Assembly: GCA_949292335.1 (NCBI GenBank)
Contig: CASEYY010000031.1
Coordinates: forward strand, 1,075 to 65,074
Source of the DNA: an uncultured Pseudomonadota bacterium
GTDB lineage: Bacteria > Pseudomonadota > Alphaproteobacteria > RF32 > CAG-239
Direction: 5' to 3'
DNA: 64,000 nt
A program made the position numbers and the translations under genes. Positions 989 through 52,504 of the stretch are shown here, in pieces. The notes under the pieces were generated by a model that was not told where the DNA came from, did not search any database, and saw only the letters and a program-made list of their open reading frames with translations. The number at the start of each line of letters is the position of its first letter. Within the stretch, counting starts at the first letter, position 1.

Positions 989-1032
989 TTAAGGCGACGG
1001 GAGTGTACTGGCGGTACATGACCTAGCCTTAA
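989..1032. repeat. structured hairpin element, instance A (ttaaggc-gacggg-AGTGTAC-tggc-GGTACATGA-ccta-gccttaa)
   Basis: Conserved core with a compensatory outer stem. Immediately 5' of the tgtattagttgcccatta motif and the REP cluster. Confidence 0.6.
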
Positions 1033-1075
1033 AGGAGGTTTCTGTATTAGTTGCCCATTATACGCCGTTTTTGTC

Positions 1076-1260
1076 ATTCTCGGGCTTGACCCGAGAATCT
1101 AATAAAGCAATGTGCCAATACTTATGAGATCCTCGGAATAAATCCGAGGATGACGAGGCTGTGTGGTGGTCGAGGGTGACAGTTGTTTGTGGTAGCTGGG
1201 GATGACAATGGGCTATGTTGTCCAAGGGTGACAAGTGGTGTGGAGCTCAAAGGTTAACTG
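1076..1260. repeat. cluster of REP-like palindromic repeat units (tctcggg-N5-cccgaga, atcctcgga-N5-tccgaggat, then GGGTGACA-type short repeats)
   Basis: Read directly: gtcattctcgggcttgacccgagaatc and gatcctcggaataaatccgaggatgac hairpins, followed by gagggtgacag / ggggatgacaatggg / agggtgacaag. Same family as the 9890-10560 cluster. Confidence 0.7.
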
Positions 1261-1355
1261 TAAAATCAGCTTACTTTCGCAAAAAAACTCTTGTCAAAAC
1301 TTGCTATTATAATACAATTATCATAATTTTCACAACTATCAGGAGTTTTTAAATC

Positions 1356-2102
1356 ATGACCGCTCTAATCTTTCCTCTGGGACTAATAATTGTTATGTTT
1401 GTTGTTGCCGGATTTCGTATTCTGTTTCAATATGAAGAAGGCGTTGTTTTCACCCTTGGTCGCTACACCAGCACACGCGACCCCGGTTTAACCTGGATTA
1501 TTCCGCTCATCCAAGAAATGCGTAAAATAGATATGCGGATAATGACGGTTGATGTTCCCAAACAAGAAGTTATGACCAAAGACAACATTCCGGTCAACAT
1601 CAATGCCGTTGTTTACTTTCGGGTTAAAAATCCCGAAGCCGCGGTTATTCAAATTTCAAATTATGTCTTTGCGGTGATTCAGCAAAGCCAATCTGCCCTC
1701 AAAGATGTTATCGGCACCAATGATTTGGATGTAACTTTATCCGAACGCAAACGCATTGGCGAAGAAATCAAAAACATTGTCGACGCCGCCACCGATAAAT
1801 GGGGAATTGACATTGAGGCCATCAATGTCCAAGAGATTGAATTACCCGAAGACATGAAACGTGCGATGGCCAAGCAAGCCGAAGCCGAACGCAACCGCCG
1901 AGCCATGATAATTTCGGCTCAAGGCGAAGTCGAGTCCGCCCAAAAGATGTTGGAAGCGGCCAAAACTTTAGAGAAAAGCCCGATTACCATGCAGCTTAAA
2001 ACCCTACAAACCATCAAAGACATTTCGGCCTCACAATCGCAAACCATTGCTTTATTTCCGACCGAATTGAGCACTCTTTTAGGTAATATTCAAAAGAAAT
2101 AA
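1356..2102 (+). CDS. SPFH/band-7 (stomatin/HflC-like) membrane protein
   Basis: N-terminal TM helix followed by a typical SPFH core (...IPVNINAVVYFRV.DP....I.NY...I.Q.....L....G...LD..L..R..I...I). A strong hairpin plus T-run follows at 2109-2147. Confidence 0.8.
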   Translation: MTALIFPLGLIIVMFVVAGFRILFQYEEGVVFTLGRYTSTRDPGLTWIIPLIQEMRKIDMRIMTVDVPKQEVMTKDNIPVNINAVVYFRVKNPEAAVIQISNYVFAVIQQSQSALKDVIGTNDLDVTLSERKRIGEEIKNIVDAATDKWGIDIEAINVQEIELPEDMKRAMAKQAEAERNRRAMIISAQGEVESAQKMLEAAKTLEKSPITMQLKTLQTIKDISASQSQTIALFPTELSTLLGNIQKK

Positions 2103-2108
2103 TTTCTC

Positions 2109-2147
2109 ATATCCCCGAATTATCTTTTGGTTCGAGGATATTTTTTC
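2109..2147 (+). terminator. rho-independent terminator after the band-7 gene
   Basis: atatccccgaa / ttcgaggatat stem (11 bp, 1 mismatch), then TTTTTT. Confidence 0.55.
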
Positions 2148-2235
2148 TAAACAAGCAAATCCGATTGACAAAAATGCAACCATAGTATATGTTATGCGGC
2201 ATCACATAAATATTATTAACTAAATACAATTAATT

Positions 2236-3117
2236 ATGAACAGAAAAAACATGATAGCAAGTGTCGAGAACGACAAAGTATTACAGCATTTTTTACTCAA
2301 TGGAACACCCATTCAAATTCTAAAAATGTACACCGACGGTTACCCGCTTGATGCCCAAGGGCTCGAAGCTCTGTACTGCCGTGGATTTTCCAAAGGAGAA
2401 ATCTTGCCTATGATCAAACAGGCAAGTAATATTTCGTCCCCGCAAAATCTCTACGACTGGCTGTGCGGTTTTATAGGTAAAGACGAAGCTGATAATTTTG
2501 TCGCCGACATTATTGGTTTTGATACCGAGATTCTAAAACAGATACCGACCAAAATTCTGGCGGAGCATTCGCGTTGGGACATTTTGGTAGAGATGAGAGC
2601 CGACGATATTTTATATCATTATAAAAAATATGATATGATGTCTACGGAAGGGCTTGCCAAACACCAACTTTATGATCTCTTTTTCAAAAAAGGCGGTATC
2701 TTAGTCACGGGTAATAATACAGGTGCCCTCAAGTATTTGGAAGAAAACAAGCTTTGGCGGATTATATGTGCTAATGCAAGCTATTGGTCAATCCACAAAA
2801 AAGCCCAGCCTTTTCTTGATATCTTAATCAGGAACAAGTGCTTTGATGATATTTTAAGTCTGACCGACGGAGCGAAGCTTCTGGCTGAATCTGCCGAAGG
2901 GATTGCTTTTCTCAAACGCAAAAACGAGCAACACCTCTTAGCAAAGGCCAAACTCTACGAAGAAATAGACTGGAATGTCTATTTTGTGCAAGACTATGAA
3001 CGTGCCGTTGCCAGTGCCGTCAAAGCAAAAAAGTGGCAAGTATTAGTCGAACACGAATGTTCAAAAGAACTCTGGTCCAACAAGAAATATCTGTACTGGC
3101 TCAAGAGTCTGCTGTAG
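2236..3117 (+). CDS. hypothetical protein (no recognisable domain)
   Basis: ORF of 293 aa with reasonable spacing to a terminator at 3122-3161. No motif I can assign. Confidence 0.5.
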   Translation: MNRKNMIASVENDKVLQHFLLNGTPIQILKMYTDGYPLDAQGLEALYCRGFSKGEILPMIKQASNISSPQNLYDWLCGFIGKDEADNFVADIIGFDTEILKQIPTKILAEHSRWDILVEMRADDILYHYKKYDMMSTEGLAKHQLYDLFFKKGGILVTGNNTGALKYLEENKLWRIICANASYWSIHKKAQPFLDILIRNKCFDDILSLTDGAKLLAESAEGIAFLKRKNEQHLLAKAKLYEEIDWNVYFVQDYERAVASAVKAKKWQVLVEHECSKELWSNKKYLYWLKSLL

Positions 3118-3121
3118 GAAT

Positions 3122-3161
3122 AAACAAAAGCTCCTGTTTTTCATGACGGGAGCTTTTGTTG
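3122..3161. terminator. bidirectional terminator hairpin between convergent genes
   Basis: aaaagctcc ... ggagctttt, a 9-bp stem with an A-run before and a T-run after. Confidence 0.55.
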
Positions 3162-3163
3162 TA

Positions 3164-5380
3164 TTAAAAGGCATATTGTATTCCCAGTGTTATCTCGTAA
3201 GGTACCTCAATTTTGCTGTTCATCTCGGTTAAAGCCTCCAAGTAAGCAAAATTTCCGTCACCCCAGTAGAAATTCACTCCGCCGCCCAACTCATAACGCA
3301 AGGAAGACATATCCTCATCAAAAGTATAATCGGCGACTTTGACTACCGACTTATTATCGCTGTCATGCACCAGACCAAATCTGGCAAAACCTTCGACTTT
3401 TTTATCTTCGGCCAGATTAAAACTTTTTCCGACGATTGCGTCAATTCTCTGCCTCAAATAATTTGCACCTTCGGCCTCAACTCTGGTATTAAAATTGGTT
3501 CGATAATCAATACCGTTGATGTGCATATATTCCACACCGAGAGATGTTTCAACAAACCAGTCTTTTTTAAGTTCAAACCTCTTGCCCAAGTTTGAAGCCA
3601 GCAAGACGCTATGAGCCCGATATCTGCTTTCTACATCTCTGCCGGCAGGAGTATAACTTTTAATTTTTTGCTTATGCCAAAAATAAGTTCCGACCAAATC
3701 AACAAACCACTTGCTTGGGGTTTTGAATATACCATACAAACCCAAAGATTTAGTATCACCGTCGCCCCTGCCTTCCAAGTGATAAATTTGCTTAGAATTA
3801 GTATATCCGGCAAAGGCTCCCAAAGTGAGCGTACTATCCCAATCCCAGTTTACATCTTGGTCATAACCGGCCTCGGTTCCGTAGACATCGATTCTGCTTT
3901 TGCCGCCGGCATTATAATCCAGTTCAATTCGTCTGCCCAAACCTTTCACCCAAAGGCGATTTTTGGGCTCGCTGTTTTTTCGCAAACCGCGAACATGGCT
4001 GTATACCGGATTTAGATGGGTATAAAACAGAGAAGACAGTGCCGTATAAGTATTTTTGGCAATTACCGAGCTTTCGGTCACATCCTGAGTTTTAACCAAG
4101 AACCAATTACCGCCTTCCGGAGCAAGGGTATATTCATAGGCCCCGACATCCACCGCGTCGCCTACCAAATAAAAGCTGTCTGACGCGGTATTTTGGGCAA
4201 TAATCTGATATTTTTCGGGGGTATTACCCTCAAAACTATAATCATGCACCACAAGCCCGAAATTACCCGCCCCTCCGACTATGCTGATTTGATCGGATGT
4301 ATCGTCGGATAAACTGGTACTTATATCAAAGACCGCACTTCCGTTGAGATTGGTAAAACTGACATTGGTAAAATTTTCATCATTATAGGTAACATTGATG
4401 GTAGCATTACTTACCGTCAAATCATTAATTGTATTACCGCCGACGATATTTAGCAAGCTATCGCTAAAAGAGTTTGTTCCGCTGAGTGTTCCGCCCGCAT
4501 AAAGCGAAACGATACTACCGCTTTCGGCCGTAACCCCTGATGATTCCCCGCCCGAATAAATGGTCTGAAAACCTTTATTTTTTAGAGTTGTATTCTGAGC
4601 CGTACCACCGGAATAAATTCTCTGATAAGCATTATCGATTGTTGTATTATCGGCCGAGCCGTAAACCGACATTGATGCCGAATTAAGCAAAGCTGTATCT
4701 GTTGCCGTGGCCGAAGAATTGATTTCCACCCATCCGCCGTTTGAAGTAATATTGGTTACATTTCCGCTGCCATAAACATAAATGCTTGATGATGAATTAA
4801 CCAAAGCACCATTTGCCGTTCCGTAAACCCTTATCCTACCGCCGTTTGATACTACAGCATCACTTGAGGTTGCACCGGCATCTATTTGCTGTGTAGCACC
4901 GTTAATTTGCGCACCGATAGATGTACCGCCGCTTAATATTTCTTGCGTACCTCCGTTAATAACGGCATTTTCATCTGTACCTGAAACATTCATCTTACCG
5001 CTGTTTAATACTGTATTTTTTGCCGTTGCGCCATTCGCCACAGTCATGGTTCCGCCGTTAATGGTGGTTCCTTCGGCATTTCCGCCTGCAGCCACACTCA
5101 TGGTTCCCCTCGAAGCCACTGTCGAATTATAAGCATTACCGCCGGATTGAACATTTTGCTGTCCATAAGAATATATATAGGTATTATATGCAGCCCCGCC
5201 GTCCATAATCGTTTGGGTAGAATAAATAGTATAATTCTGAGTAGTACCGTGCACATTCTGCACAAACGGTGCATCAACATAACCATTACTAACGGTATCT
5301 CCTACTGCAACAACTTGAGTTATAGCCTTTGCATTAAAAGGAATTGTTGTCATCATCAAAGTATAAACAATTTTTTTCAT
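3164..5380 (-). CDS. classical (type Va) autotransporter: signal peptide, Gly/Asn/Thr-rich beta-helical passenger, C-terminal beta-barrel translocator
   Basis: N-terminal MKKIVYTLMMTTIPFNAKA signal peptide. Long passenger with reiterated ..GG.A.NT.. / ..VSNGG..-type beta-helix repeats. C-terminal ~270 aa with alternating hydrophobic beta-strands ending ...TLGIQYAF (terminal aromatic residue typical of OM barrels). Confidence 0.8.
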   Translation of the reverse strand: MKKIVYTLMMTTIPFNAKAITQVVAVGDTVSNGYVDAPFVQNVHGTTQNYTIYSTQTIMDGGAAYNTYIYSYGQQNVQSGGNAYNSTVASRGTMSVAAGGNAEGTTINGGTMTVANGATAKNTVLNSGKMNVSGTDENAVINGGTQEILSGGTSIGAQINGATQQIDAGATSSDAVVSNGGRIRVYGTANGALVNSSSSIYVYGSGNVTNITSNGGWVEINSSATATDTALLNSASMSVYGSADNTTIDNAYQRIYSGGTAQNTTLKNKGFQTIYSGGESSGVTAESGSIVSLYAGGTLSGTNSFSDSLLNIVGGNTINDLTVSNATINVTYNDENFTNVSFTNLNGSAVFDISTSLSDDTSDQISIVGGAGNFGLVVHDYSFEGNTPEKYQIIAQNTASDSFYLVGDAVDVGAYEYTLAPEGGNWFLVKTQDVTESSVIAKNTYTALSSLFYTHLNPVYSHVRGLRKNSEPKNRLWVKGLGRRIELDYNAGGKSRIDVYGTEAGYDQDVNWDWDSTLTLGAFAGYTNSKQIYHLEGRGDGDTKSLGLYGIFKTPSKWFVDLVGTYFWHKQKIKSYTPAGRDVESRYRAHSVLLASNLGKRFELKKDWFVETSLGVEYMHINGIDYRTNFNTRVEAEGANYLRQRIDAIVGKSFNLAEDKKVEGFARFGLVHDSDNKSVVKVADYTFDEDMSSLRYELGGGVNFYWGDGNFAYLEALTEMNSKIEVPYEITLGIQYAF

Positions 5381-5474
5381 TTCCGGTCCTCAAAAGCAGT
5401 TTACTTTTATCTCAGTATATAAGAGCAATATTTAAAAATAGAATAATAAGTATATAAAAAAATACAATATTGCA

Positions 5475-5503
5475 TTGATAAATAGCGGCAAATTTCCTAT
5501 AAT
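5475..5503 (+). promoter_or_regulatory. sigma70-like promoter (TTGATA-17-TATAAT) upstream of glgX
   Basis: ttgata / aatagcggcaaatttcc / tataat, read directly. An AGGAG RBS follows at 5524. Confidence 0.4.
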
Positions 5504-5534
5504 TGAATAAACTTATTTTATTTAGGAGATTTTT

Positions 5535-7631: not shown

Positions 7632-7637
7632 ACACCA

Positions 7638-9889: not shown

Positions 9890-10325
9890 TTTTATTCGAT
9901 TCTCGGACGCCAAAAAAGTCATCCTCGGATAAAAAAGTTACCCTCGGGCACCACAAAAAGTCATCCTCGGACTTGTTCCGAGGATCTTCCCTCTGTCGTC
10001 ATCCTCGGACTTGTTCCGAGGATCTCCCCTCTGTCGTCATCCTCGGACTTGTTCCGAGGATCTCCCCTCTGTCGTCATCCTCGGACTCCGACCCGAGGGT
10101 CTCTCTGCCATTACCATCCACAACACACTCCAGTCATCCTCGGATAAAAAAGTCACCCTCGGACGCCACAAAAAGTCATCCTCGGACTTGTTCCGAGGAT
10201 CTCTCTGTCATCACCATCAGCCACAACACACTCCCGTCATCCTCGGACTTGTTCCGAGGATCTTCCCCTCTCCTGTCACCCTCGGGCTCCGACCCGAGGG
10301 TCTCATAAGCTGTAGCACATTGTTT
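9890..10325. repeat. dense array of REP-like palindromic units including a perfect 38-bp x3 tandem (9960-10073)
   Basis: gtcatcctcggacttgttccgaggatct(t/c)ccctctgtc is repeated three times head-to-tail. A ~68-bp larger unit (gtcatcctcggataaaaaagtYaccctcggRcRccacaaaaagtcatcctcggacttgttccgaggatc) occurs twice. A ccctcgggctccgacccgaggg hairpin also occurs twice. Confidence 0.85.
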
Positions 10326-10329
10326 TTAT

Positions 10330-10556
10330 CAGATTCTCGGGACAGGCCCGAGAATGACGAAAAGAAAAAACAAGCCCGAGAATGACAAAAAAAGAAAAAA
10401 CAAGCCCGAGAATGACAAAAAAAGAAAAACAAGCCCGCAAAAGCGAGGAAAAAAATCCCGCATGAGAATGACAATAAAGAAACCCTAAAACCACAACTAA
10501 GAATACAAGTCCCAAGAATGACAATAAGAACAAATCCCAAGCACCTTCCTAAATAA
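10330..10556. repeat. short tandem repeats of the aagcccgagaatgacaaaaaaagaaaaaac type (about 5 copies, degenerating)
   Basis: gagaatgaca is the reverse complement of the tgtcattctc arm seen at 1076. Period ~29-30 bp. Confidence 0.75.
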
Positions 10557-10736
10557 TACACTATTTAATCATCCGGCTTGGGCGACTCTGCCGATAATTT
10601 TTACAAATTTGTCAAAATTATCACAAAACCGTAACAAAAAAAACCGCGATTTTCACGACACTTCCCCCATACAGTCCTTGATTTTATTACATTTTATCGT
10701 TTTTATAAAAAAATTGACAAAAATGACAAATACCCC

Positions 10737-11416: not shown

Positions 11417-11426
11417 ATAAAACAAA

Positions 11427-11462
11427 AAATCCTTTGGTTTTCAAGACCAAGGGATTTTTTGT
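11427..11462 (+). terminator. rho-independent terminator
   Basis: aatcctttggttttcaagaccaagggatt + TTTTTT. Confidence 0.55.
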
Positions 11463-11526
11463 TGACTTTTGTCCAAAAGATGCTATTTCTGAAAACAGAT
11501 AACACTAATTTTTAATTTTCTATAAT

Positions 11527-12054: not shown

Positions 12055-12059
12055 GCAAA

Positions 12060-12098
12060 AAAATCCGCTTTGTCCTCCCGACAACGCGGATTTTTTTA
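12060..12098 (+). terminator. rho-independent terminator
   Basis: aatccgc...gcggatt stem followed by a T7 run. Confidence 0.55.
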
Positions 12099-35706: not shown

Positions 35707-35740
35707 CAAAAAACCGGATACTTGAATATCCGGTTTTTTA
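35705..35740. terminator. bidirectional terminator between rbfA and fabG
   Basis: aaccggata...tatccggtt + TTTTT. Confidence 0.55.
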
Positions 35741-36673: not shown

Positions 36674-38944
36674 ATGGCTAAACGCAAAAAAGGAAAAACA
36701 CTTTTCGCCAAGGTTTTGACATTCGGACTTGGTGTATTTTTTATACTATCCGCATTGTTTTTAATATTTTCGTGTCTGTTTTATGACAGCCGCGATTCCG
36801 GATACAATATAGCCAATTCTCTGCCCATAAACAACTTATTGGGAGCAAACGGGGCTTACGCGGCAAGCTTTGCTTTAAGTTGGTTTGGATTGGGTCTGGC
36901 AATATTCTTAATTGCACCTTTGGTTTGGGGCTATGAGATTTTAAGGTACAAAACCTTTGTCCATGCTTATGGCCGTATATTTGCCTTTATTTTAGGTACC
37001 GTATGCCTATCAACCTTCTTGGATTTGAGCCTTGGTGAAGCGGAAAGATTTAGTTTCGGCGGCAACATCGGGGTATTTTTTACCCGCCAATTTTTAAGTT
37101 TAACCTCCCGCATATACCCCTTTGCCTATAACGACATAATCTTAGGCGGCATACTGTTTTTGCTTGCTTTGATTTCGTTTAATTTTGCCTGCGGAATAAA
37201 CATCAGCAGTTGGTACAAATTAAGCAAAAAATTTATATTATTTATTGGCGGCATATTGATTATGTTCATCAACGGCTGTCGCAGTCTATGCAGTTTTGGT
37301 GCCAAAGTAAAGAGCAAAAAAGCCTCAACAAAACCGACCAAAACTCGCAAAGAGCCCAAACTTCGTGACAATAAAGAAAACAAGAATACCACAGCTTCGG
37401 CGACCATAAAAATTGCCAAACCGGTCAGTAAAATTGATGACGGCTATGAGTTTCCCGATATTAATCTGCTGTCTGCCGCAAAAGACAAAGCCACGCAGCA
37501 CATGAGTCAAAAAGAACTTGAAAAAGTTGCCGCCAAATTAGAAGAAGTTCTGCAAGAATTCGGCGTATCGGGCAAAATAGTACAGATTCGCCCCGGCCCG
37601 GTAGTCACTCTTTACGAGCTTGAACCGGCACCAGGCACCAAAACGGCTCGTGTAATTGGATTGTCTGATGATATTGCTCGCTCCATGAGTGCGGTCTCGG
37701 TTCGTATTGCGGTTGTTCCGGGGTCAAATACCATCGGTATCGAACTCCCCAACTCCACCCGCGAAATTGTGTATCTGCGTGATTTACTGGAAAGTGATGA
37801 TTTTAAAAACGCCAAAGCCGCTCTAACCATAAGTTTGGGTAAGGATATCGGTGGCAAAAACACCTATGCCGATTTATCAAAAATGCCTCACTTACTGGTT
37901 GCCGGTACCACCGGTTCCGGTAAGTCTGTCGGTGTTAACTCGATGATAATTTCGCTTTTGTACCGTATGCGTCCCGATGAGTGCAAACTGATAATGATAG
38001 ACCCCAAGATGTTGGAATTTACCATGTACAACGGCATTCCGCACTTGCTTACTCCGGTTATTACCGACCCGTCCAAAGCGGTTATCGGTCTAAAATGGGC
38101 GGTTAAAGAGATGGAAGACCGCTATCGTGCCATGGCTCAGTTAAATGTTCGCAACATCAGCGGTTACAACCAACGACTTGAAGAATTGCGAAGCAGCGGT
38201 GAAAAAATCACCCGCACGGTTCAAACCGGCTTTGATATGGAAACCGGCAAACCGATATACGAAGAGCAAGAACTCGATTTAACTCCGATGCCTTATATTG
38301 TGATTGTCGTTGATGAAATGGCCGATTTGATGTTGGTTGCCGGCAAAGAGGTCGAAGCGGCAATTCAGCGTTTGGCACAAATGGCTCGTGCCGCGGGTAT
38401 TCACCTGATTATGTCGACGCAAAGACCGTCGGTTGATGTTATTACCGGTACGATTAAGGCCAACTTCCCGACCCGTATCAGCTATCAAGTAACCTCAAAA
38501 ATAGACAGCCGCACCATTTTAGGCGAACAAGGAGCCGAGCAACTATTAGGCATGGGCGATATGCTTTATATGCCGGCCGGACAACGTCCGTTGCGTGTTC
38601 ATGCACCTTTTGTCAAAGATAGCGAAGTTGAGCAAATTGTTGAGTTCCTAAAAAAGCAAAAGCAACCCGAATATGTCGAAGCGGTAACCGAAGGCGAATT
38701 AAATGACAGCAAATCCGGTGGCGGAGCAGTATTTGACAACGGTGATTTCGGCGGAGGCGGCAGTGACGAAGACTTGTATCGCCAAGCCGTGCAGATTGTA
38801 CAAAACGACAAGAAAGCTTCCATCAGCTATGTCCAAAGAAGATTAAGGATAGGCTACAATCGAGCGGCTTCGATTATAGACCGCATGGAAGCCGAGGGCA
38901 TAGTTTCGGCTGCTGATCATGTCGGCCGCCGCGAAGTTTTGTAG
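36674..38944 (+). CDS. ftsK: DNA translocase FtsK
   Basis: 4-5 N-terminal TM helices. Motor domain with Walker A (GTTGSGKS), DEMADL, the QRPS...I.ANFP.RISY block, and the C-terminal winged-helix gamma domain (SISYVQRRLRIGYNRAA). ATG at 36674 with AAGGA SD is preferred over the track's TTG at 36626. Confidence 0.92.
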   Translation: MAKRKKGKTLFAKVLTFGLGVFFILSALFLIFSCLFYDSRDSGYNIANSLPINNLLGANGAYAASFALSWFGLGLAIFLIAPLVWGYEILRYKTFVHAYGRIFAFILGTVCLSTFLDLSLGEAERFSFGGNIGVFFTRQFLSLTSRIYPFAYNDIILGGILFLLALISFNFACGINISSWYKLSKKFILFIGGILIMFINGCRSLCSFGAKVKSKKASTKPTKTRKEPKLRDNKENKNTTASATIKIAKPVSKIDDGYEFPDINLLSAAKDKATQHMSQKELEKVAAKLEEVLQEFGVSGKIVQIRPGPVVTLYELEPAPGTKTARVIGLSDDIARSMSAVSVRIAVVPGSNTIGIELPNSTREIVYLRDLLESDDFKNAKAALTISLGKDIGGKNTYADLSKMPHLLVAGTTGSGKSVGVNSMIISLLYRMRPDECKLIMIDPKMLEFTMYNGIPHLLTPVITDPSKAVIGLKWAVKEMEDRYRAMAQLNVRNISGYNQRLEELRSSGEKITRTVQTGFDMETGKPIYEEQELDLTPMPYIVIVVDEMADLMLVAGKEVEAAIQRLAQMARAAGIHLIMSTQRPSVDVITGTIKANFPTRISYQVTSKIDSRTILGEQGAEQLLGMGDMLYMPAGQRPLRVHAPFVKDSEVEQIVEFLKKQKQPEYVEAVTEGELNDSKSGGGAVFDNGDFGGGGSDEDLYRQAVQIVQNDKKASISYVQRRLRIGYNRAASIIDRMEAEGIVSAADHVGRREVL

Positions 38945-38971
38945 ATATTTATAAAGTGGATTTGCAGGCGA

Positions 38972-39009
38972 GCAAAATTTTAGTGTACAAAGCAGTACAT
39001 GAATTTTGC
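38972..39009. repeat. structured hairpin element, instance D (gcaaaatttt-AGTGTAC-aaagc-AGTACATGA-attttgc)
   Basis: Same conserved core as 989-1032, 52432-52476 and the 106-bp repeat units, with a different but complementary outer stem. Confidence 0.6.
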
Positions 39010-39028
39010 GAGACCGCACAAAGCTGCT

Positions 39029-39505
39029 TTAGAAATCCTTTAGACGTATTTTTCTATCGAGTTCGCGATTCTTAATCGTCTCCCTCTTATCATAATTCTT
39101 TTTGCCACGGCCGAGCCCAACCTCAAGCTTGGCTCTGCCGCGATTATCAAAAAACAATCTTATCGCTACCAAGGTTGCTCCCTTTTTGGCCAAAGCGTTC
39201 ATAATATCTCTTATTTCTTTTTTGGTAAGCAATAGCTTGCGTTCGCGTTTTTCGGCATGCGAAGAATATCCCTTGTTGGCATACTCGGCAATAAACATAT
39301 TGGCCATAAAAATCTCACCATTCCGCTCGATTCCATAAGCATCATTGATATTAGCATGCCCCAACCGCAAAGACTTAACCTCGGTTCCCAAAAGTTGCAA
39401 ACCGGCCACAAATTTTTCTTCAATCAAATAATCAAAGTTGGCACGGCGGTTTTGTGCGACCAAACCACTTACTATAAAATCCGATTTTCTTTTAGCCTTT
39501 GCCAT
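39029..39505 (-). CDS. smpB: SsrA-binding protein SmpB
   Basis: ANFDY.I.E...AG..L.GTEVKSLR.G...I.DAY........F..N..I..Y. 158 aa. Confidence 0.92.
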   Translation of the reverse strand: MAKAKRKSDFIVSGLVAQNRRANFDYLIEEKFVAGLQLLGTEVKSLRLGHANINDAYGIERNGEIFMANMFIAEYANKGYSSHAEKRERKLLLTKKEIRDIMNALAKKGATLVAIRLFFDNRGRAKLEVGLGRGKKNYDKRETIKNRELDRKIRLKDF

Positions 39506-40556: not shown

Positions 40557-40561
40557 AACTC

Positions 40562-42130: not shown

Positions 42131-42177
42131 AAAAAAGGTGTCAAATGCCTTTGCTAAGACATTTAACACCTTTTTTA
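42131..42177. terminator. bidirectional terminator (aaggtgtcaaatg...catttaacacctt)
   Basis: 13-bp stem with 1 mismatch, A6 before and T6 after. Confidence 0.55.
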
Positions 42178-43476: not shown

Positions 43477-43518
43477 TTTTATATCCTCTAAACAAGAAAG
43501 TTTTAAAAGTTATACGAG

Positions 43519-43866
43519 AAGTAAATATACAAGTAGGAATCCGCTCTTTTTTATTTATTCAATGTTTAGCGAGATTAATACGCAGTATATTTACGACGAA
43601 GTGTACACAAAAGAGGTACATGAGGAGTAAATATACAAGTAGGAATCCGCTCTTTTTTATTTATTCAATGTTTAGCGAGATTAATACGCAGTATATTTAC
43701 GACGAAGTGTACACAAAAGAGGTACATGAGGAGTAAATATACCAGTAGGAATCCGCTCTTGTTTATTTATTCAATGTTTAGCGAGATTAATACGCAGTAT
43801 ATTTACGACGAAGTGTACACAAAAAAGGTACATGAGGAGTAAATATACAAGTAGAAATCCGCTAAA
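43519..43866. repeat. 106-bp tandem repeat, 3 full copies plus a diverged partial 4th
   Basis: gagtaaatat recurs at 43625, 43731 and 43837, giving an exact 106-bp period. Copies differ by 2-3 substitutions. Each unit contains the AGTGTAC...GGTACATGA hairpin core. The terminal partial copy ends in cgctaaacattgaataa, the reverse complement of the unit-internal ttattcaatgtttagcg. Confidence 0.9.
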
Positions 43867-44971
43867 CATTGAATAAAAAGTTTAGCAAATCGCCGTCTTG
43901 CACCACATACTCTTTTCCTTCGGAACGCATTTTGCCGGCTTCTTTGCAGGCCTGTTCACCACCCAAAGTAACAAAATCATCATAAGAGATGGTTTCGGCA
44001 CGAATAAAGCCGCGTTCAAAGTCCGAGTGAATGATACCGGCACAGACCGGTGCTTTCGAACCTTTAACAAATGTCCAGGCTCTGACTTCTTTGGGGCCGG
44101 CAGTAAAATAAGTTTGCAGGCCCAAAAGATTGTAACCCTCACGAATAATTTTCGACAATCCGGTTTCTTTTAAGCCCAAAGTCTCCAAAAATTCTTTTTT
44201 CTCGGCTTCGTCATCAAGCTGAGCCACTTCCGATTCTATTGCCGCCGAAATAATTACCGCACGAGCATTTTCTTCTTTGGCCTTTTCAAACACTCTTTTA
44301 GAAAATTCGTTACCCTCTGCGGCCGCCGCCTCATCGACATTACATACATACAATACCGGTTTTGCGGTCAAAAGCTGCAACATTTTATAGGTTTTATAAG
44401 CATCTTTATTGCTCTCATCGGGAGCGGCGGTACGAGCCGGCTGTCCCATTTTCAAGGCTTCGATAATCGGAGCCATAACCGACACATTAAGGATGGCTTC
44501 TTTATCACCGCCTTTGGCTTTTTTCTGAGCCTGATCAAACCTTTTTTCCAAAGATTCCAAATCGGCAATCATTAACTCGGTTTCAACAATTTCGGCATCA
44601 CGAATAGGGTCGACCGAACCTTCGACATGGGTAATATTTTCGTCTTCAAAACAACGCAACACATGAATTATGGCATCCACTTCACGAATATTGGCCAAAA
44701 ACTGGTTGCCCAAGCCCTCACCCTTGGAAGCACCTTTAACCAATCCGGCAATATCAACAAATTCGAGTTGGGTCGGCACAATTTGTTTGGGTTTTACAAT
44801 ATCGGCAAGCTTTTGCAACCTCTCATCCGGCACTGCCACCCTACCGGTATTTGGTTCAATCGTACAAAACGGAAAATTGGCTGCCTGTGCCGCAATGGTT
44901 TGGGTTAAGGCATTAAACAAAGTAGATTTTCCCACATTAGGCAATCCGACAATACCGCAATTAAATCCCAT
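43862..44971 (-). CDS. ychF: ribosome-binding ATPase YchF (Ola1)
   Basis: [18 protein letters not shown].....[19 protein letters not shown]-terminal TGS domain. Confidence 0.93.
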
Positions 44972-45625: not shown

Positions 45626-45640
45626 TTTACATCTCTTTTA

Positions 45641-45679
45641 TAAAAAAGCGGCACCAAGAAATATTTATCCTCGTGCCGC
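45641..45679 (-). terminator. rho-independent terminator after rplY
   Basis: gcggcac...gtgccgc stem, with a T6 run on the minus strand. Confidence 0.5.
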
Positions 45680-45721
45680 CATATCGCCAATTTTGTATTA
45701 GTTGCCCATTAGACGAATTTT

Positions 45722-46012
45722 TTACTTTCTGATGAAATCAACATGAATAGGCTTATCCGAAACCGGATGGAACTGCACATCTTTGCAAACAACGGCAATT
45801 TTTTGTCCGTCAACAACAACTTCTACATCAGCTTCATAAAAACCTCTGGTGTCAAGAGCCTTTTCCAACTCTACCGGATGCAAAGAAACCATCATCGGTT
45901 CTTGTTTTCCACCATAAATAACGGCAGGAATACGGCCCTCACGACGACATGCACGAGCTGCCCCCTTACCTGCTTTTTCTCTTTTTTCTGCATTAAAAGT
46001 AATCATTTTCAA
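45722..46012 (-). CDS. rplY: 50S ribosomal protein L25 (short form)
   Basis: ...R.G.GAAR..RR.G.IPAVIYGG...P..V....EL........ 96 aa. Conserved rplY-pth-ychF order. Confidence 0.8.
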   Translation of the reverse strand: MKMITFNAEKREKAGKGAARACRREGRIPAVIYGGKQEPMMVSLHPVELEKALDTRGFYEADVEVVVDGQKIAVVCKDVQFHPVSDKPIHVDFIRK

Positions 46013-46112: not shown

Positions 46113-46149
46113 AAACAAAAAACGGCAAGGTCTTCAAGACCTCACCGTT
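46113..46149 (-). terminator. terminator-like hairpin after ORF 46155-46634
   Basis: aacggcaaggtcttcaagacctcaccgtt imperfect stem, with a T-run on the minus strand. Confidence 0.4.
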
Positions 46150-46154
46150 GAAGT

Positions 46155-46634
46155 TTATGACAAGTTGCAGTAAACATCTTCCGGTTCTCCGCGTTTGTCA
46201 TATAGAACAAACAAATCAACCTTGTAGGTTTCTTGTTTGTTCAATTTCTCATCCCCGATATACAACACCGGAAATGAAACTCCTTTCATTTTCGCTTCCC
46301 CTTCTCTGCCGTTTTCTTTGTCGGTCAAGAAAAAGTCGACATTTTTGCCGTAGTGGGTTACAAAATCAAGAAAATCTGCTCTTGCTTGATGCAGAATTTC
46401 TTGTTGCACCCCTATAACCAGCATAAGAAGGGTGATGTTAAATACCAATTCGGGGGGATTTTTATAAAAAATTGCCCCCACAGCCACGAATAACATGACA
46501 TCAACAACCTTTAAGATCATTGAGAGTCCGAATATTGCCGAAAACGACAATAACGTTCCGCGGCAGCAGAATTGGTATAACAAATAGGTTCCCAGCAACA
46601 TCAGTACCGGAAACAAAATTTTTAACATTTCCAT
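46155..46634 (-). CDS. hypothetical membrane protein (3 N-terminal TM helices + soluble C-terminal domain)
   Basis: ORF only. Hydrophobic N-terminal 90 aa. Confidence 0.45.
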   Translation of the reverse strand: MEMLKILFPVLMLLGTYLLYQFCCRGTLLSFSAIFGLSMILKVVDVMLFVAVGAIFYKNPPELVFNITLLMLVIGVQQEILHQARADFLDFVTHYGKNVDFFLTDKENGREGEAKMKGVSFPVLYIGDEKLNKQETYKVDLFVLYDKRGEPEDVYCNLS

Positions 46635-46655
46635 ATAAAAAAATTAAAAGATTTA

Positions 46656-46895
46656 TTACTCAAGAACCCAAATTTCCTCGGTTACATCGTAACCAACAAC
46701 TTTGAGTCTCTTTAATTTTTTGGCGTAACTGCTAATTACACCATTTTCAAAATACCGCCCCTTCCATTCAAAAGAACAGTACCTGATTTCTCCGCAACGC
46801 CGTATCTCTACAATTTTAACGGCATTCCGTTTCAGATAAATCCGCCTTGCCACGAACACTATCAATGACAAAAGCAAAAGAATATATGCTCCCAT
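46656..46895 (-). CDS. hypothetical small membrane-anchored protein (79 aa)
   Basis: N-terminal TM helix, then a ~55-aa beta-rich tail. Lies 21 nt upstream of the previous ORF. Confidence 0.35.
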   Translation of the reverse strand: MGAYILLLLSLIVFVARRIYLKRNAVKIVEIRRCGEIRYCSFEWKGRYFENGVISSYAKKLKRLKVVGYDVTEEIWVLE

Positions 46896-46962
46896 AATAT
46901 ATAAATTATATTTCCTTATGACATAAATTTATCAGAAATAGACAAAATTGTCAAACATAAAA

Positions 46963-46996
46963 AGACAAAAAACAGCCCATTTTTTACTTTGGGCTG
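46963..46996 (-). terminator. rho-independent terminator after infB
   Basis: aacagccc...gggctgtt stem, with a T8 run on the minus strand (also TTTT on plus). Confidence 0.6.
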
Positions 46997-47018
46997 TTTT
47001 ACACTGATTTTCAAATAG

Positions 47019-49520
47019 TTAGGCTTGCAATTTTGCGGCAATTTCCTCAATCTCATAACATTCAATAAAGTCACCTTTCTGAATGTCATTATAATTTTCA
47101 AATGAAATACCGCACTCAAACCCTTCTTTAACTTCTTTTACATCTTCTTTGAAGCGCTTGAGCTGGCCGATAGCTCCGTCATGAATAACCACATTATCAC
47201 GCAACAAGCGGATTTTAGCACCGCGTTTAACCATACCCTCGGTAACCATACAACCGCCGACCTTGCCCACGCCGGTAATATTATAAACTTCTCTGATTTC
47301 GGCATAACCCAAGAGTTTTTCTTTAAGTTCGGGCGATAACATACCTTCCAAACCTTTCTTAATATCATCCAAAACATCGTAAATGATTGAATAATACTTA
47401 ATCTCAACTCCGTCACGACGAGCCATATCTCGGGCTTGGGCATTGGCACGAACATTAAATCCGATAATCAAAGCATGAGACGCTTTAGCCAAAGTTACAT
47501 CCGATTCGGAAATTGCACCGACAGCCGAATGCAGTATCTGAACGCTAACCTCATCATTAGAAAGCTTGGAAACCGTACCTTCAATAGCCTCAATCGACCC
47601 TTGAACATCGGCTTTGATAATAATCGGCAAGTGTTTAACCTCACCGGACTTAATCTTATCAAGCATTTGTTCCATAGCCGACTTAGCCGATTTAACCAAT
47701 TTGGCTTCGCGTTCTTTTCTGATACGATATCCGGTAATTTCTTTGGCTTTTCCCTCATCGGCAACAACTACAAAATCATCACCGGCCGAAGGCGTCCCTT
47801 GTAACCCGATAACCTCTACCGGAGTAGCCGGACCTGCTTCTTGCATTTTTTGACCATTCTCATTAAACATGGCACGAACATGGCCCCACTCTTTACCGGC
47901 AATACAAATATCACCGACTTTGAGTGTTCCTTTCTGTACCAAAGCCGTAACTACCGTACCGCGGCCTTTTTCCATTTTGGCTTCAATAATTGCACCTTCG
48001 GCATTACGATTCGGATTGGCTTTCAAATCAAGCATTTCGGCCTGCAGCAAAATTGCATCGACCAATTTGTCGATATTAATGCGTTTTTTAGCCGAAACCT
48101 CGGCACACAAACACTCGCCGCCCATTTCTTCGACACCGATTCCGTGTTGCAACAAAGAGGTTTTAACCTTCATCGGATCGGCACCGGGCAAATCGATTTT
48201 ATTAATTGCCACCACAATCGGCACTTCGGCGGCCTGAGCATGGCGAATAGCCTCAATCGTTTGCGGCATGATGCCGTCATTGGCCGCCACCACCAAAACC
48301 ACGATATCGGTAACCTTAGCACCTCTGGCACGCATTTCAGAGAATGCTTCGTGACCAGGGGTATCAATAAAGGTAATCTTATCACCCGATTTAACGGTAA
48401 TCTGATAAGCACCGATATGTTGGGTTATACCACCGGCCTCTTTTGCGGCAACATTAGTTTCACGCAAAGCATCGAGCAAAGAGGTTTTACCATGGTCAAC
48501 GTGTCCCATAACGGTAACCACAGGAGCTCTGGGCAACAGCATATCCGGAGTATCTTCATTGGCTGTCAAGATTTGCTCAACATCGCTATCCGCCACTCTC
48601 TTAAATTTGTGACCAAACTCTTCAACAATAATCTGAGCGGTATCGGCATCAATCGGTTGGTTAATGGTTGCCATAACTCCCAAAGACATCAATTTTTTAA
48701 TAACTTCGGCAGATTTTTCGGCCATACGATTGGCCAACTCTTGCACGGTTATAATTTCCGGAATAATAACTTCTTTAATCACCTTCTCCGCAGGTGCAAC
48801 CTGCACCACCGATTTAGGCTGTTTTTTCTTAAATCTGCGACGCGGTGCCCCATAGCCGTAATCATCATCGTCATCATCACCGCTTGAGATATTGTGAATA
48901 CTAACTTTTGCCTGTCGGCGTTGCGGTTCAAAAGATCGCTTGGTTATTTGTTTTTTGCGTTCTTGCTCAAACACCTCTTCCTTTGACACGGCCTTTTTCA
49001 CCGAACCTGCCGGAATATAGTCATCATCATCTTCTTCATCATCAAAATCATGTTTCTGTCTTTCCTTAAATTTGGTCAAGACCCGATTTTCATTTTCCTT
49101 AACCTGAACCGCCGCGTCTTCTTTCTTTTGCTGTTCGACTTCTTTTTTCTGTTGTTCGGCTTCTTTTTTAGCCTTTTCCTCGGCTTGAGCTTTTTCTGCC
49201 GCTTCGATTTCTTTTTGTTTACGCAGTTCTTCTTCTTTTTGTTTTTGTCTTAATAAGTTGCGTTCCTCTTCCTCTTGTCGGCGTTTAGAATCATATTCTT
49301 TTGCCTCGGCAATCAGCTTTAACTTAGCCGCAGTTTCTTCATCAATTTTCGGTTTGGTTTCGGTCTGCGGATTCTGCCCGATAACTCTTTTTTTGCGCAC
49401 CTCAACCTGCACCATTTTTTTACCGTCAGCCGCCTGCGGCTTACCGCTGAGCTTAAGTGTCAGGGTAGATTTTCCCGATAATGTTAATTTAGTTTTTGCA
49501 TTATCATCTGTCATATACAT
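47019..49520 (-). CDS. infB: translation initiation factor IF-2
   Basis: Lys/Glu-rich N-terminal region. G-domain [16 protein letters not shown]...DTPGHEAF...NKID. C-terminal beta-barrels. Confidence 0.96.
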
Positions 49521-49539
49521 TCATCTCCGTTTCTAATCT

Positions 49540-50112
49540 TTAGTTGTTTAAGAATGAGGTCAGAGCGACAAAAGTTTTTCTAACCGCCTTTGCCATATCG
49601 CCTCCTTTTAAAAAGGCCAAATGGACTGTATTATCTCTTGCTAATTCTTTATCTAACTCCTCTGTCTTAAACAAACTGAAAATTTCCAAATTTTTGGCGG
49701 CTGCCATAATTTTCTTATGCCCGTCTTCACCTGCATCGGAGGCCTCCAACAAAAACTCGACATTATTTTTTTTCAAAGCCTCTGTCACCTTATCCATTCC
49801 GCAAACCAAACATCCGGCTTTGCGAGCCAAAGACACGGCATCAAGAGCCTGCTTGTGCAAAATATTTTCGACCTGAGTTACTAACTCATCTCCGACTTTT
49901 GCTTTAATTTTTAGAGCTTTGGCAAACAAATTTGCCTTTACGGCTTTTTGCAACAACGACTTTGCATTGCAAACATAAACCCCTTTACCGGGCAATCTTT
50001 TCTTAAAATCCGGCACCACGGTTCCGTCAGGCAACACGGCAAAACGCAACATCTGTTCTTTTTCTGTCACGACAGAGCTTGCAATACATTTTCTGGTCGT
50101 TTCTTTTTGCAT
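49540..50112 (-). CDS. YlxR (DUF448)-L7Ae-like RNA-binding fusion protein between nusA and infB
   Basis: RKCIAS...E.LRF (DUF448 core). The C-terminal half resembles L7Ae/L30e. Position between nusA and infB is typical of alphaproteobacteria. Confidence 0.75.
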   Translation of the reverse strand: MQKETTRKCIASSVVTEKEQMLRFAVLPDGTVVPDFKKRLPGKGVYVCNAKSLLQKAVKANLFAKALKIKAKVGDELVTQVENILHKQALDAVSLARKAGCLVCGMDKVTEALKKNNVEFLLEASDAGEDGHKKIMAAAKNLEIFSLFKTEELDKELARDNTVHLAFLKGGDMAKAVRKTFVALTSFLNN

Positions 50113-50161
50113 TTTTTAATCCCTAAGTCGACGGGAGGTATTCCCGTCGACCATTGTTATA

Positions 50162-51676
50162 CTATTCTTCAAACCAATGAGCTCTGGCAGCCATAATAAC
50201 TTTTTCGGCCTCTTGAACCGATAAAGTGTCTTCGCCCAAGATTTCAATAAGTTCGTCGGTTGCCAAATCGGCCAAATCATCTATGGTGCGAATATTATTA
50301 TTAGCCAAAGTCAAGAGCATATCTTTATCCAAGCCTTCAATAGCCTGCAATTTTTCGTCAATACCCAATGACTTACTCTTTTGAGCAAATTCTTTATTGC
50401 GTTTTTCGACATACTCTTTGGCACGTTTTTGCAATTCTTGAGCAATATCCTCATCAAAGCCTTCGATTTCAGATAATTCGTTAACACTAACCATGGCGAT
50501 TTCGTCAACATTTGAAAAACCTTCGGCAATCAGCAAGTGAGCAATCATCTCATCGACATCCAAAGCTTCCATAAATCTTTGTGAACGAACCTTATTTTCA
50601 TTCGAGCGACGTTCTTGCTCTTGCTCTTCGGTCAAGACATCGATATCACATCCCAACAACTGCGAGGCTAATCTTACATTCTGACCTCTGCGACCGATGG
50701 CAATCGAGAATTGTTCTTGCGGTACCACGGCCTCAATACGGTTATTTTCTTCATCAATAACCACTTTGGTTACTTCTGCCGGAGCCAAAGCACTAACAAT
50801 ATACTGAGCCTTATCATCGGAGTAAGGAACGATATCAACTCTTTCACCCTGCAACTCGTTAACTACTGCCTGCACTCTGATACCGCGCAAGCCGACACAA
50901 GCACCGATGGCATCCACGGTAACATCGTCAGTTCTAACGGCCATCTTGGCTTTTGAACCGGGGTCACGAGCCACGGCAACGATTTGCACAATACCATCGT
51001 AAATTTCTGGGACTTCCGAAGTAAACAATTTAGCCAAAAATTCGGGACAAGTTCTGGATAAAAAGATTTGCGGACCTTTATTTTCGCGACGCACTTCCAA
51101 AACATATGCTCTGATTCTGTCTCCGACCTTAAATTTTTCTCTGGGTATCATTTCGTCACGACGCAACAAGGCTTCGGTTCTGCCGATATCAACCGACACA
51201 TTGGCAAAATCGACTCTCTTAACCGTACCGTTAATAATTGTTCCGACTTTTTCTTTATATTCTTCAAACTGTTTGTTGCGTTCGGCCTCTTTTACTTTCT
51301 GCATAATAACCTGCTTTGCGGTTTGAGCGGCGATTCGACCGAAATCAATCGGCGGCAACGGATCAATTAAGAACTCGCCGACTTTAATTTTTTCATCATA
51401 AGCCGAAGCATCATCCAAAGTAATTTGAGTAGCTTCGTTTTCGATATCATCTTCCGATTTAACCACCTCGCGATACCTCGACAATGAAATTGCACCGGTC
51501 TTGCGATCGATATGAGCTCTGATATCATGTTCCATACCGTATTTAGAACGGGCTGACTTTTGGATAGCAACTTCCATTGCTTCAAAAACATCTTCTTTGT
51601 CGATATTTTTTTCTCTGGCAACGGTATCTGCGACTAAGATAATCTCAGGTCTGGGCATATTTTCTTGTGTTTGCAT
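50162..51676 (-). CDS. nusA: transcription termination/antitermination factor NusA
   Basis: N-terminal domain, S1, two KH domains (GxxG) and C-terminal acidic repeats. 504 aa. Confidence 0.95.
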   Translation of the reverse strand: MQTQENMPRPEIILVADTVAREKNIDKEDVFEAMEVAIQKSARSKYGMEHDIRAHIDRKTGAISLSRYREVVKSEDDIENEATQITLDDASAYDEKIKVGEFLIDPLPPIDFGRIAAQTAKQVIMQKVKEAERNKQFEEYKEKVGTIINGTVKRVDFANVSVDIGRTEALLRRDEMIPREKFKVGDRIRAYVLEVRRENKGPQIFLSRTCPEFLAKLFTSEVPEIYDGIVQIVAVARDPGSKAKMAVRTDDVTVDAIGACVGLRGIRVQAVVNELQGERVDIVPYSDDKAQYIVSALAPAEVTKVVIDEENNRIEAVVPQEQFSIAIGRRGQNVRLASQLLGCDIDVLTEEQEQERRSNENKVRSQRFMEALDVDEMIAHLLIAEGFSNVDEIAMVSVNELSEIEGFDEDIAQELQKRAKEYVEKRNKEFAQKSKSLGIDEKLQAIEGLDKDMLLTLANNNIRTIDDLADLATDELIEILGEDTLSVQEAEKVIMAARAHWFEE

Positions 51677-51711
51677 ATTATCCTCTGCATAAAAAAATAA
51701 AAGTTAGTATG

Positions 51712-52212
51712 TTATTTATCGTTAAACTGTTCTGTTTCTGCCTCTGCCAACAAAGCGTCGGTAAGGAGAAGTTTAGCTTTTGCAACTGCATTGAAAGGAA
51801 TGTTATAAACCTTGTTATCCATTTCGAAGCTGATAATTTGATCATTATCGATTCCGATAATTTTTCCCTTAAATCTTTTGCGACCTTCGACGGTTTCATC
51901 GGTTTCGATTTTTGCTTCATAGCCGGCAAATCTTGCAAAATTTTCCGGTTTGGTAAGGGGTCTGTCAAGCCCCGGAGAGCTGACCTCCAAGGAATATTCG
52001 CCGTCGATTGGGTCTTTTTCATCCAAAATATCGGAAACCACGCGGCTGACGGCAGCACAATCATCTACCACCAAATTTTTTCTGTCTAGCCGCTCGATCA
52101 TAATTTGCAAAGTGGGTTTCTGTACTCCGATAGTCATAATTCTGACCACTTCGAAACCCATTTTTTCAATTATGGGCACCAGCAAATCATGAAGTTGGTG
52201 TTTTTGTTGCAT
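51712..52212 (-). CDS. rimP: ribosome maturation factor RimP
   Basis: ...L.....G.E.V.......G....L.I.I.....V..DDC..VSR.VS..LD..DPI...Y.LEVSSPGLDRPL. I take the start at the internal ATG (52212, SD GGGAGA). The track ORF to 52329 looks over-extended. Confidence 0.85.
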   Translation of the reverse strand: MQQKHQLHDLLVPIIEKMGFEVVRIMTIGVQKPTLQIMIERLDRKNLVVDDCAAVSRVVSDILDEKDPIDGEYSLEVSSPGLDRPLTKPENFARFAGYEAKIETDETVEGRKRFKGKIIGIDNDQIISFEMDNKVYNIPFNAVAKAKLLLTDALLAEAETEQFNDK

Positions 52213-52348
52213 TATATCGATTCTCCCTAAACAAAAAGCGGAGCTTTCGGCCCCACTTTTACAATATTCACATCTAATATGCTTTGTTATATAACAGAAA
52301 AAATTTAAAAATCCAGTATTTTTTTGCATTAGTTAACGAGAAAGAAGT

Positions 52349-52504
52349 TTTGTCGGCGAAAAATCGCTTTGAGATGAGCCGTACAAAAACAAAAAACGCG
52401 GAGAATGGTTCAGATAAAGCGATTAAAGTTGCAAATGCGAGTGAGTGTACATTAGCGGTACATGACCGAGCATTTGTCGGCGAAAAATCGCTTTGAGATG
52501 AGCC
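52349..52504. repeat. pair of 32-bp perfect direct repeats (tttgtcggcgaaaaatcgctttgagatgagcc) 124 bp apart, in the rimP-nusA-infB leader
   Basis: Copies at 52349-52380 and 52473-52504. The intervening segment contains hairpin-element instance C (52432-52476). Confidence 0.85.
52432..52476. repeat. structured hairpin element, instance C (caaatgc-gagtg-AGTGTAC-attagc-GGTACATGA-ccga-gcatttg)
   Basis: Conserved core with a compensatory outer stem. Confidence 0.6.

Follow-up and report, generated by a model that had tools for sequence, protein, structure and literature searches.

An imperfect palindrome of about 125 nt repeated at gene 3′ ends in uncultured gut-associated Alphaproteobacteria, a probable family of hairpin-forming repeat DNA

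What kind of element is the conserved hairpin that recurs between the genes of an uncultured gut alphaproteobacterium? We considered this question for a 64-kb stretch of contig CASEYY010000031.1 (64,000 nucleotides in full, hereafter the window), in which an initial annotation had noticed a hairpin of about 40 nt with a shared inner core and changing outer stems. The core hairpin is the apex of an imperfect palindromic repeat of about 125 nt (range, 105–134 nt). A dispersed structured element had been recognized correctly, but its unit is the whole palindrome, in which the outer stem first described is only the fourth of five helices. We interpret the palindrome, with a probability of roughly 0.55, as lineage-specific, non-autonomous, hairpin-forming repeat DNA of the same kind as the Rickettsia palindromic elements (RPEs), the ERIC sequences (enterobacterial repetitive intergenic consensus) and the Correia elements. 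This interpretation follows from the divergence of the copies, their patchy occupancy of orthologous sites, their local amplification, the presence of in-frame copies and the assembly breaks associated with them, a combination that matches what has been summarized for those three kinds of element (PMC10969869).

The core pattern GTGTAC-N4-10-GTACATGA matches the window six times, always on the + strand (at 1003, 38983, 43601, 43707, 43813 and 52445), against 0.01 matches expected by chance from 100 dinucleotide shuffles of the window, and relaxed versions of the pattern found no extra copies there. The four loci and the tandem array reported initially are thus present where they had been placed, all on one strand, and the array belongs to the same element. 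The spacing between the half-sites of the core varies from 5 to 9 nt within the window. Compared with shuffled sequences, the apical hairpins of the window copies fold with z = −2.4 to −8.2, and their + strand folds better than the − strand because of a G·U pair at the base of the inner stem. The copies at 949–1072 and 52391–52520 have common flanks beyond the outer stems first named, and a search of 1.34 Mb of related loci for the core yielded 58 matches, each with outer stems of its own; when each match was folded with 78 nt of flank, one architecture was recovered every time. At its base, helix P1 pairs a 5′ A-run and 3–5 variable nt with the complementary nt and a T-run. A 3 × 3 loop (GAG/AUA) separates P1 from P2 (AAUGG/CCAUU-like), a 2 × 2 loop separates P2 from P3 (AUAGAG/CUCUAGAU-like), and P4, the outer stem of the initial annotation, leads through an NGA/GA loop to P5, the apical core stem, which is closed by the G·U pair; the complementary arm then ends in a T-run. 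The inverted repeat spans the whole element, and the outermost 3–5 nt and the A/T runs that make up P1 vary between copies and are complementary only within a copy. A shorter variant, class II (104–116 nt), has a AUACGNAG/CAAGUAG loop and includes the array between ychF and trmL.

MAFFT and RNAalifold applied to the raw flanks recovered the apex only, and a model-guided alignment of 90 distinct copies was used instead; its fit to the model should be borne in mind when reading the values that follow. Paired cells amounted to 91.8%, versus 70.2% after shuffling, and 45 of the 50 pairs changed on both sides. The covariation score was 0.556, which none of 500 shuffles reached (0.173 for shuffled alignments), and it was at most 0.129 when the partners were slid by 1–3 columns. 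The outer stems had been said to pair throughout while their sequences change; this holds in the relatives as well, and the covariation there is strong. The inner core had been described as the same in all instances; it is conserved within the window but not in the relatives, where GUGUAC/GUACAU becomes GCGUAC/GUACGU, GCCUAC/GUAGGU, GUUUAC/GUAAAU or GCGUAG/CUACGU while the closing G·U pair, the flanking A and the GA stay unchanged. The two strands are not equivalent. Wobble cells comprise 446 G·U versus 160 A·C, a bias to which the 22-base pattern used to collect the metagenome copies contributed by forcing an apical G·U; in 39 of 46 copies the G·U strand folds more stably than the other, the mean difference being 7.4 kcal/mol, and the covariance model scores far higher on the forward than on the reverse strand.

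This covariance model was built from five copies. Run over 1.31 Mb of sequence, comprising the window and related genome loci, it returned 62 hits at E<1e-3, and all 62 were in loci with a TrmL at least 70% identical to that of the window. In a search of the sequence collection, the 15-base core alone gave chance single matches only, among the matches listed, and a 22-base pattern was needed. The latter matched at least 120 metagenome stretches, all from gut samples, the first 100 of which yielded 192 covariance-model hits; it had no match in 2.9 million viral contigs. By covariance model, the related genome loci and gut metagenome contigs hold more than 200 copies in total. The relatives, identified by exact matches to window proteins and by comparing TrmL across one genome per species, are uncultured gut-associated Alphaproteobacteria, presumably of the GTDB order RF32, namely metagenome-assembled genomes from human, ruminant, deer, horse, rabbit and chicken guts, with labels that include 'uncultured Azospirillum sp. 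UMGS63', 'Acetobacter sp. 46_36' and Candidatus Scatocola; no exact match to the RimP protein of the window is on record. The element has been found so far only in this one clade. The initial annotation did not recognize it as any named family, and we agree: Rfam 15 has no match anywhere in the window at gathering thresholds, permissive E-value scans of two loci returned only generic long-hairpin chance matches (plant microRNA precursors, which scored 22 bits where the threshold is 119), and searches of the literature turned up no account of this repeat family. The family itself is undescribed, whereas the kind of element, as exemplified by RPEs or ERIC, is already known.

Orthologous sites differ in whether they hold the element and in how many units. 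Between the convergent ftsK and smpB genes, the window has a single + strand copy (38932–39054; apex, 38983–39002; 63.7 bits; fold z = −2.6), the 5′ P1/P2 part of which is overlapped by the 3′ end of ftsK, versus two to three tandem units of 123 bp in other strains (L001–L005). Between ychF and trmL, a class II + strand array (43516–43863) comprises 3.3 units with a period of 106 bp and 97% matches, with apices at 43601–43623, 43707–43729 and 43813–43835; its final unit forms a complete hairpin (43760–43885, fold z = −11.1), and the covariance model matches the array at 43767–43876 (24.4 bits). Another strain has about 1.25 units there (L001/L129). In nine species the same spacer is empty, its 13–56 nt holding just the stop codon and the ribosome-binding site of trmL, and elsewhere it holds a class II array, either of two different class I subtypes or an apex-deleted relic. 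In the relic, a 111-nt spacer in L140, P1–P3 were kept and P4–P5 lost. [quoted passage not shown] Between rplY and pth, the related locus L130 has two full tandem units, whereas the window has a solo 3′ arm (45675–45723, + strand) without apex or 5′ arm, joined to an ordinary terminator via a common GCCGC. Comparison of the lptG–rimP and pth loci between strains revealed no presence/absence difference.

Arrays of two to four units are common, and contig pairs with 94–98% identical flanks differ by one unit. The units adjoin one another with 0–14 nt between them; at internal junctions the 3′ half of P1 is missing, and a linker of 10–14 nt that is specific to the locus is present. Units distant from the abutting gene are often decayed, and in most arrays examined the best model score belongs to the unit nearest the stop codon. 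A pair of copies 3.5 kb apart in L228 is about 95% identical across P2–P5, with P1 sequences that are unrelated and each self-complementary. Many metagenome contigs end inside or beside the element (L254, L255, L268, L277, L286, L303 and others).

Some copies lie in frame inside genes. In hemW, a 129-nt copy (43 codons; L170, 14538–14666) is situated between the Radical_SAM and HemN_C domains, and two further hemW genes contain two units (L161, 14547–14776) and 3.4 units of 123 nt (L332, 1013–1469), in all three cases antisense to the gene. HemW proteins of the clade range from 345 to 481 amino acids because they contain zero, partial, one, two or three units of a repeat of about 41–43 amino acids. 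In the hemW copy the T-run comes 5′ and the A-run 3′, so that this copy lacks a terminator frame; the nearest orthologue without a copy is only 64% identical, too distant for the junction to be read from it. In truA (L148, 16020–16140; L135, 17063–17187), the G·U strand is the coding strand, and the copy forms an insert of about 51 amino acids relative to Escherichia coli TruA. Palindromic repeats of 100–150 bp in frame with an open reading frame, a characteristic of RPE-like elements, are therefore found in both genes, and these coding copies retain their inverted repeats.

The window also contains two full-length class I copies on the + strand. One directly follows the stop codon of a flagellin gene (949–1072; apex core, 1003–1021; P4, 989–1032; 56.3 bits) and folds at −57.8 kcal/mol (z = −10.2), whereas its reverse strand reaches only −41.9 kcal/mol. 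The other lies between lptG and rimP (52391–52520; apex, 52445–52465), with its T-run overlapping the lptG stop codon; it scores 103.7 bits versus 39.7 on the reverse strand and folds at −56.4 kcal/mol (z = −9.1), against −38.9. Close to it on the + strand is a partial 3′-arm duplicate (52349–52380), a perfect 32-nt direct repeat of 52473–52504 that is also present in L130 and, judged from its sequence, may be read as a remnant of an older tandem unit. The genes near the window copies are ordinary housekeeping genes, encoding flagellin, a band-7 protein, FtsK, SmpB, TrmL, YchF, RimP and LptG. Besides the element copies (104, 64, 56 and 24 bits), the covariance model matched only ordinary terminators in the window (42131–42176, 35707–35740, 46970–46999, 12058–12096, 11421–11463 and 3123–3160), and these via P1 alone. 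The ordinary terminators of this genome are hairpins consisting of an A-run, a 7–13 bp stem and a T-run, bidirectional in form. The flagellin 3′ end at 880–985 differs from that at 1480–1915 of L127 up to about 10 nt before the element; flagellin copies may have recombined, or the gene of L127 may be frameshifted. Short GC-rich hairpins (GTCATYCTCGG-N-CCGAGRATC; 9900–10560 and 1075–1155) make up another repeat family, unrelated to the element, which occurs partly as 38-bp tandem repeats (3.4 copies, 98% matches) and partly as inverted pairs adjoining the copy at 949–1072, and a 21-bp tandem repeat (2.5 copies) lies within the infB coding region at 49118–49169. A promoter-like site, TTGGAA-17-TATAAT, is located on the − strand at 52505–52533, with its −10 hexamer in the element arm and its −35 hexamer in the end of lptG, and could drive rimP-nusA-infB.

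The gene 3′ of the element, with respect to the G·U strand, is on the opposite strand in 47 of 51 genome-locus copies and in 109 of 117 metagenome copies. Its stop codon typically falls 1–15 nt inside the T-run end; read on the strand of the gene, it is a TAA joined to the A-run, or else the TAA forms part of a TATAAT-like hexamer. Many copies are only 12–32 nt from the start codon of the next gene. The T-runs are short (mean, 3.8 nt) and equal in both directions. The strand rich in G·U pairs is the C-rich strand, and one orientation is nearly always kept: of the 54 genome-locus copies, 53 have a negative GC skew along the element strand, and so do about 46 of 50 convergent-gene contexts (a hand count from both copy tables), which are informative because gene-orientation effects cancel there. 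The window itself has about 42% GC, and the skew of its + strand is negative over the full length. In three copies, those at flagellin in the window and truA in relatives, the G·U strand lies on the C-rich strand although the gene is on the same strand. From these exceptions and from the convergent contexts, we infer that the main rule of orientation is tied to the replication strand. Very few copies (2 of about 80) are situated between genes that both run along the C-rich strand, which suggests a second filter, whereby copies that put a strong hairpin into the sense transcript would be lost.

How could this distribution have come about? We propose that the element colonized the DNA that flanks genes on their 3′ side, where it starts at the stop codon or no more than about 15 nt from it, that it occasionally entered a gene in frame, and that local amplification has given head-to-tail arrays whose copy number varies between strains. 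Its spread probably depends on a trans-acting factor that recognizes the folded single strand, presumably through the G·U closing pair, the flanking A and GA and the GAG/AUA loop. Recognition of a folded single strand would account for the persistence of the fold, the G·U closing pair and the purine-rich loops through the drift of the helices. The near-invariant orientation might reflect a replication-coupled step, the loss of copies that place a strong hairpin in the sense transcript, or both. Because intergenic copies are sited at stop codons between an A-run and a T-run, they resemble extended terminators, and this appearance would be a by-product of location rather than the reason for their existence. 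Several observations weigh against this interpretation as repeat DNA. The orthologous copies at 52391 of the window and at 815 of L130 have undergone compensatory changes in place, and non-adjacent copies on one contig, mostly 55–72% identical, are nevertheless paired with the same non-canonical positions; together they point to selection that acts on the fold where it stands, as would be expected of a functional RNA more than of selfish DNA in decay. In the L228 pair and in the copies at 949 and 52391 of the window and in L141, the flanks are inverted complements, and no target-site duplication is visible. In about 2 Mb of clade sequence, which does not cover whole genomes, there were no 5′ and 3′ arms more than 440 nt apart that would indicate an autonomous partner, and the sequence available, again short of whole genomes, revealed no candidate transposase. 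Nor did the approximately 2 Mb give any sign that the arms are insertion sequence (IS) ends, in a comparison that did not include known IS/MITE terminal repeats. Finally, the present data do not cleanly separate replication from transcription as the source of the orientation rule.

The compensatory changes in place and the conserved non-canonical positions mean that a host-level RNA role stays a serious rival. The element could be an RNA hairpin that the host has selected to act in cis where transcription units end, that is, a long bidirectional intrinsic terminator, an insulator or a 3′-end stabilizer, whose better-folding strand would mainly stop transcription antisense to, or converging on, the adjacent gene. 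With its A-run, stem and T-run, P1 is built like the ordinary terminators of this genome, most copies overlap the neighbouring gene's stop codon at their T-run end, and the strong covariation, the conserved G·U pairs and the superior score of the stop-codon-proximal unit in most arrays would all fit such a role. Intrinsic terminators consist of a GC-rich stem with a U-tract (at least 5 in 8) directly behind it, and P1 plus the T-run has this form, with a T-run that averages 3.8 nt. The short T-runs, equal in the two directions, give no sign of one-directional termination, however, and a consensus terminator scan calls no element copy, since the 'loop' is about 100 nt. Copies also sit between ychF and trmL, which in relatives are separated by only 13–37 nt and probably co-transcribed, so that an efficient sense terminator there would be polar; termination is impossible for the copies that lie in frame within hemW and truA, and orthologous sites frequently lack the element. 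We regard this explanation as unlikely on balance, and its most plausible form may be a terminator or insulator with a bias in orientation, one that acts strongly on antisense or head-on transcription but lets sense transcription leak through. For a dedicated regulatory RNA, as the initial annotation had suggested among other roles, the same in-frame copies and empty sites, together with the strain-variable tandem number, argue instead for repeat DNA of the RPE/ERIC type. That annotation had also considered a small structured RNA. If the G·U strand encoded stand-alone small RNA genes, each with its own promoter and with P1 and a U-run as terminator, the strand-specific covariation with its conserved G·U and G·A features and the excess of the forward over the reverse model score would be expected. 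Upstream of the A-run, however, no position between −70 and −1 reaches 0.35 bit (139 copies) and there is no conserved promoter, many copies lie 12–32 nt from the start codon of the next gene, array units abut with 0–14 nt between them, and coding copies exist; with no upstream promoter and a start codon so close, independent small RNAs are very improbable.

A replication-coupled single-stranded DNA element, comparable to the repetitive extragenic palindromes (REPs) and their paired form (REPINs) with their REP-associated tyrosine transposases (RAYTs), or to palindromes derived from IS200/IS605, is a mechanistic sub-case of the repeat-element interpretation rather than a true alternative. In this scheme an HUH-type enzyme would recognize the hairpin on one DNA strand, and such recognition would fix its orientation relative to the replication fork. 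It agrees with the near-invariant orientation relative to GC skew, including the convergent contexts and the flagellin and truA exceptions, with the variable loop length, which excludes a double-stranded dimer site, and with the absence of target-site duplication, and the conserved mismatches could be recognition features. It is less easily reconciled with the better-folding strand, which is C-rich and, judging from GC skew, the leading-strand template, whereas IS608 uses the lagging-strand template. The element is moreover one long hairpin rather than two subterminal hairpins, REPs are 20–40 nt long and near-identical within a genome, and no Y1/RAYT gene was seen in the sequence available, which is short of whole genomes. 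This specific mechanism thus seems quite unlikely. Another alternative, which we consider doubtful, is a new class of structure-selected element with one functional strand, marked by the conserved G·U and G·A, that is fixed relative to the replication fork and is either a mobile hairpin or a strand-asymmetric insulator. The mobile version would have no terminal repeats or target duplication, and an enzyme as yet unknown would move it and insert it at stop codons; the insulator version would have been recruited by the host to block head-on or antisense transcription while letting sense transcription pass. A double-stranded DNA site for a dimeric regulator or nucleoid protein, with TGTAC and GTACA as half-sites, would account for an inverted repeat conserved within the window. 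The half-site spacing varies from 5 to 9 nt there, however, and the half-site sequence covaries in relatives; both features fit a stem rather than a duplex recognition site, and this proposal is scarcely tenable.

Other candidates were rejected. A general promoter cassette with TATAAT in the arm, as in Correia elements, is not supported, since only 5 of 142 copies have such a promoter-like site and the hexamer varies, often just containing the stop codon. The ATG of the core gives unrelated peptides of 3–23 amino acids by hand translation and covaries away, which does not fit a conserved small open reading frame or type I toxin. Integron attC sites have outer R′′/R′ core sites (RYYYAAC ... GTTRRRY) and a variable inner part and lie between gene cassettes; here, the ends are A-run and T-run, the conserved parts are internal, and units abut without cassettes. 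A kink-turn at the apex would need a canonical stem, a 3-nt bulge and then tandem G·A/A·G pairs. In many copies a tandem GA beside the G·U pair is possible, but conservation extends neither to the bulge nor to the canonical stem directly next to it, and the types A, B and GCGGA differ. The length of 105–134 nt and the 55–72% identity of the copies also set the element apart from the short, near-identical REPs and REPINs.

To our knowledge, how palindromic repeats of the RPE/ERIC type spread has been an open question since their description. The present family offers several hundred diverged copies across many gut genomes for comparative study, and it should be a good system in which to ask how such repeats move because its covariation is unusually clear and its orientation follows a rule. 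Together with the conserved non-canonical positions, the coding copies and the array polymorphism, these properties make comparative tests of spread feasible, such as profiling for a trans-acting factor or an analysis of orientation around the replication origin and terminus. In practical terms, the element breaks metagenome assemblies of the clade, creates length variants of HemW and TruA, and provides, in its arrays, strain markers of the variable-number tandem repeat type.

Among known systems, REPs, the bacterial interspersed mosaic elements that they form and the REPIN-RAYT systems are likewise extragenic palindromes at gene ends, sometimes clustered; they are thought to be moved by a trans-acting enzyme that recognizes the hairpin. 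The Correia elements of Neisseria resemble the palindromic element in size (100–150 bp), in long inverted repeats that fold as an RNA hairpin and in the ability to supply promoter or terminator activity, and one window copy provides the TATAAT of a promoter-like site. Correia elements end in defined inverted repeats of 26 bp and duplicate a TA target, whereas the termini of the present element are variable and mutually complementary, with no duplication. ERIC sequences, also known as intergenic repeat units, are imperfect palindromes of about 127 bp. Their copies number from tens to hundreds, are usually found at gene 3′ ends in intergenic DNA that is transcribed, and affect mRNA in a manner that depends on their orientation, and other repeats in unrelated hosts look like terminators or sit in 3′ untranslated regions (PMC10969869). 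In palindrome size, copy number and siting at gene 3′ ends, the present element is similar to ERIC; its sequence has no evident resemblance to ERIC, in a comparison made without an ERIC consensus. ERIC copies are highly similar in sequence across species, whereas copies of the present element have only islands in common (55–72% identity) while their helices covary.

A close parallel in behaviour is with the RPEs, which also are palindromic repeats of about 100–150 bp present in many copies in an alphaproteobacterial lineage, and which likewise have no known means of spread. They too occur both between genes and within housekeeping genes unrelated to one another, in frame, so that translation yields a peptide insert (in part from PMC10969869). 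The hosts differ, in that those of the present element are free-living gut bacteria with a GC content of about 42%. The present copies are mostly intergenic at stop codons, are commonly arranged in tandem arrays and obey a strong strand rule, traits that RPEs may or may not share. By analogy of behaviour, and not by sequence homology, the palindromic element would appear to work like an RPE.

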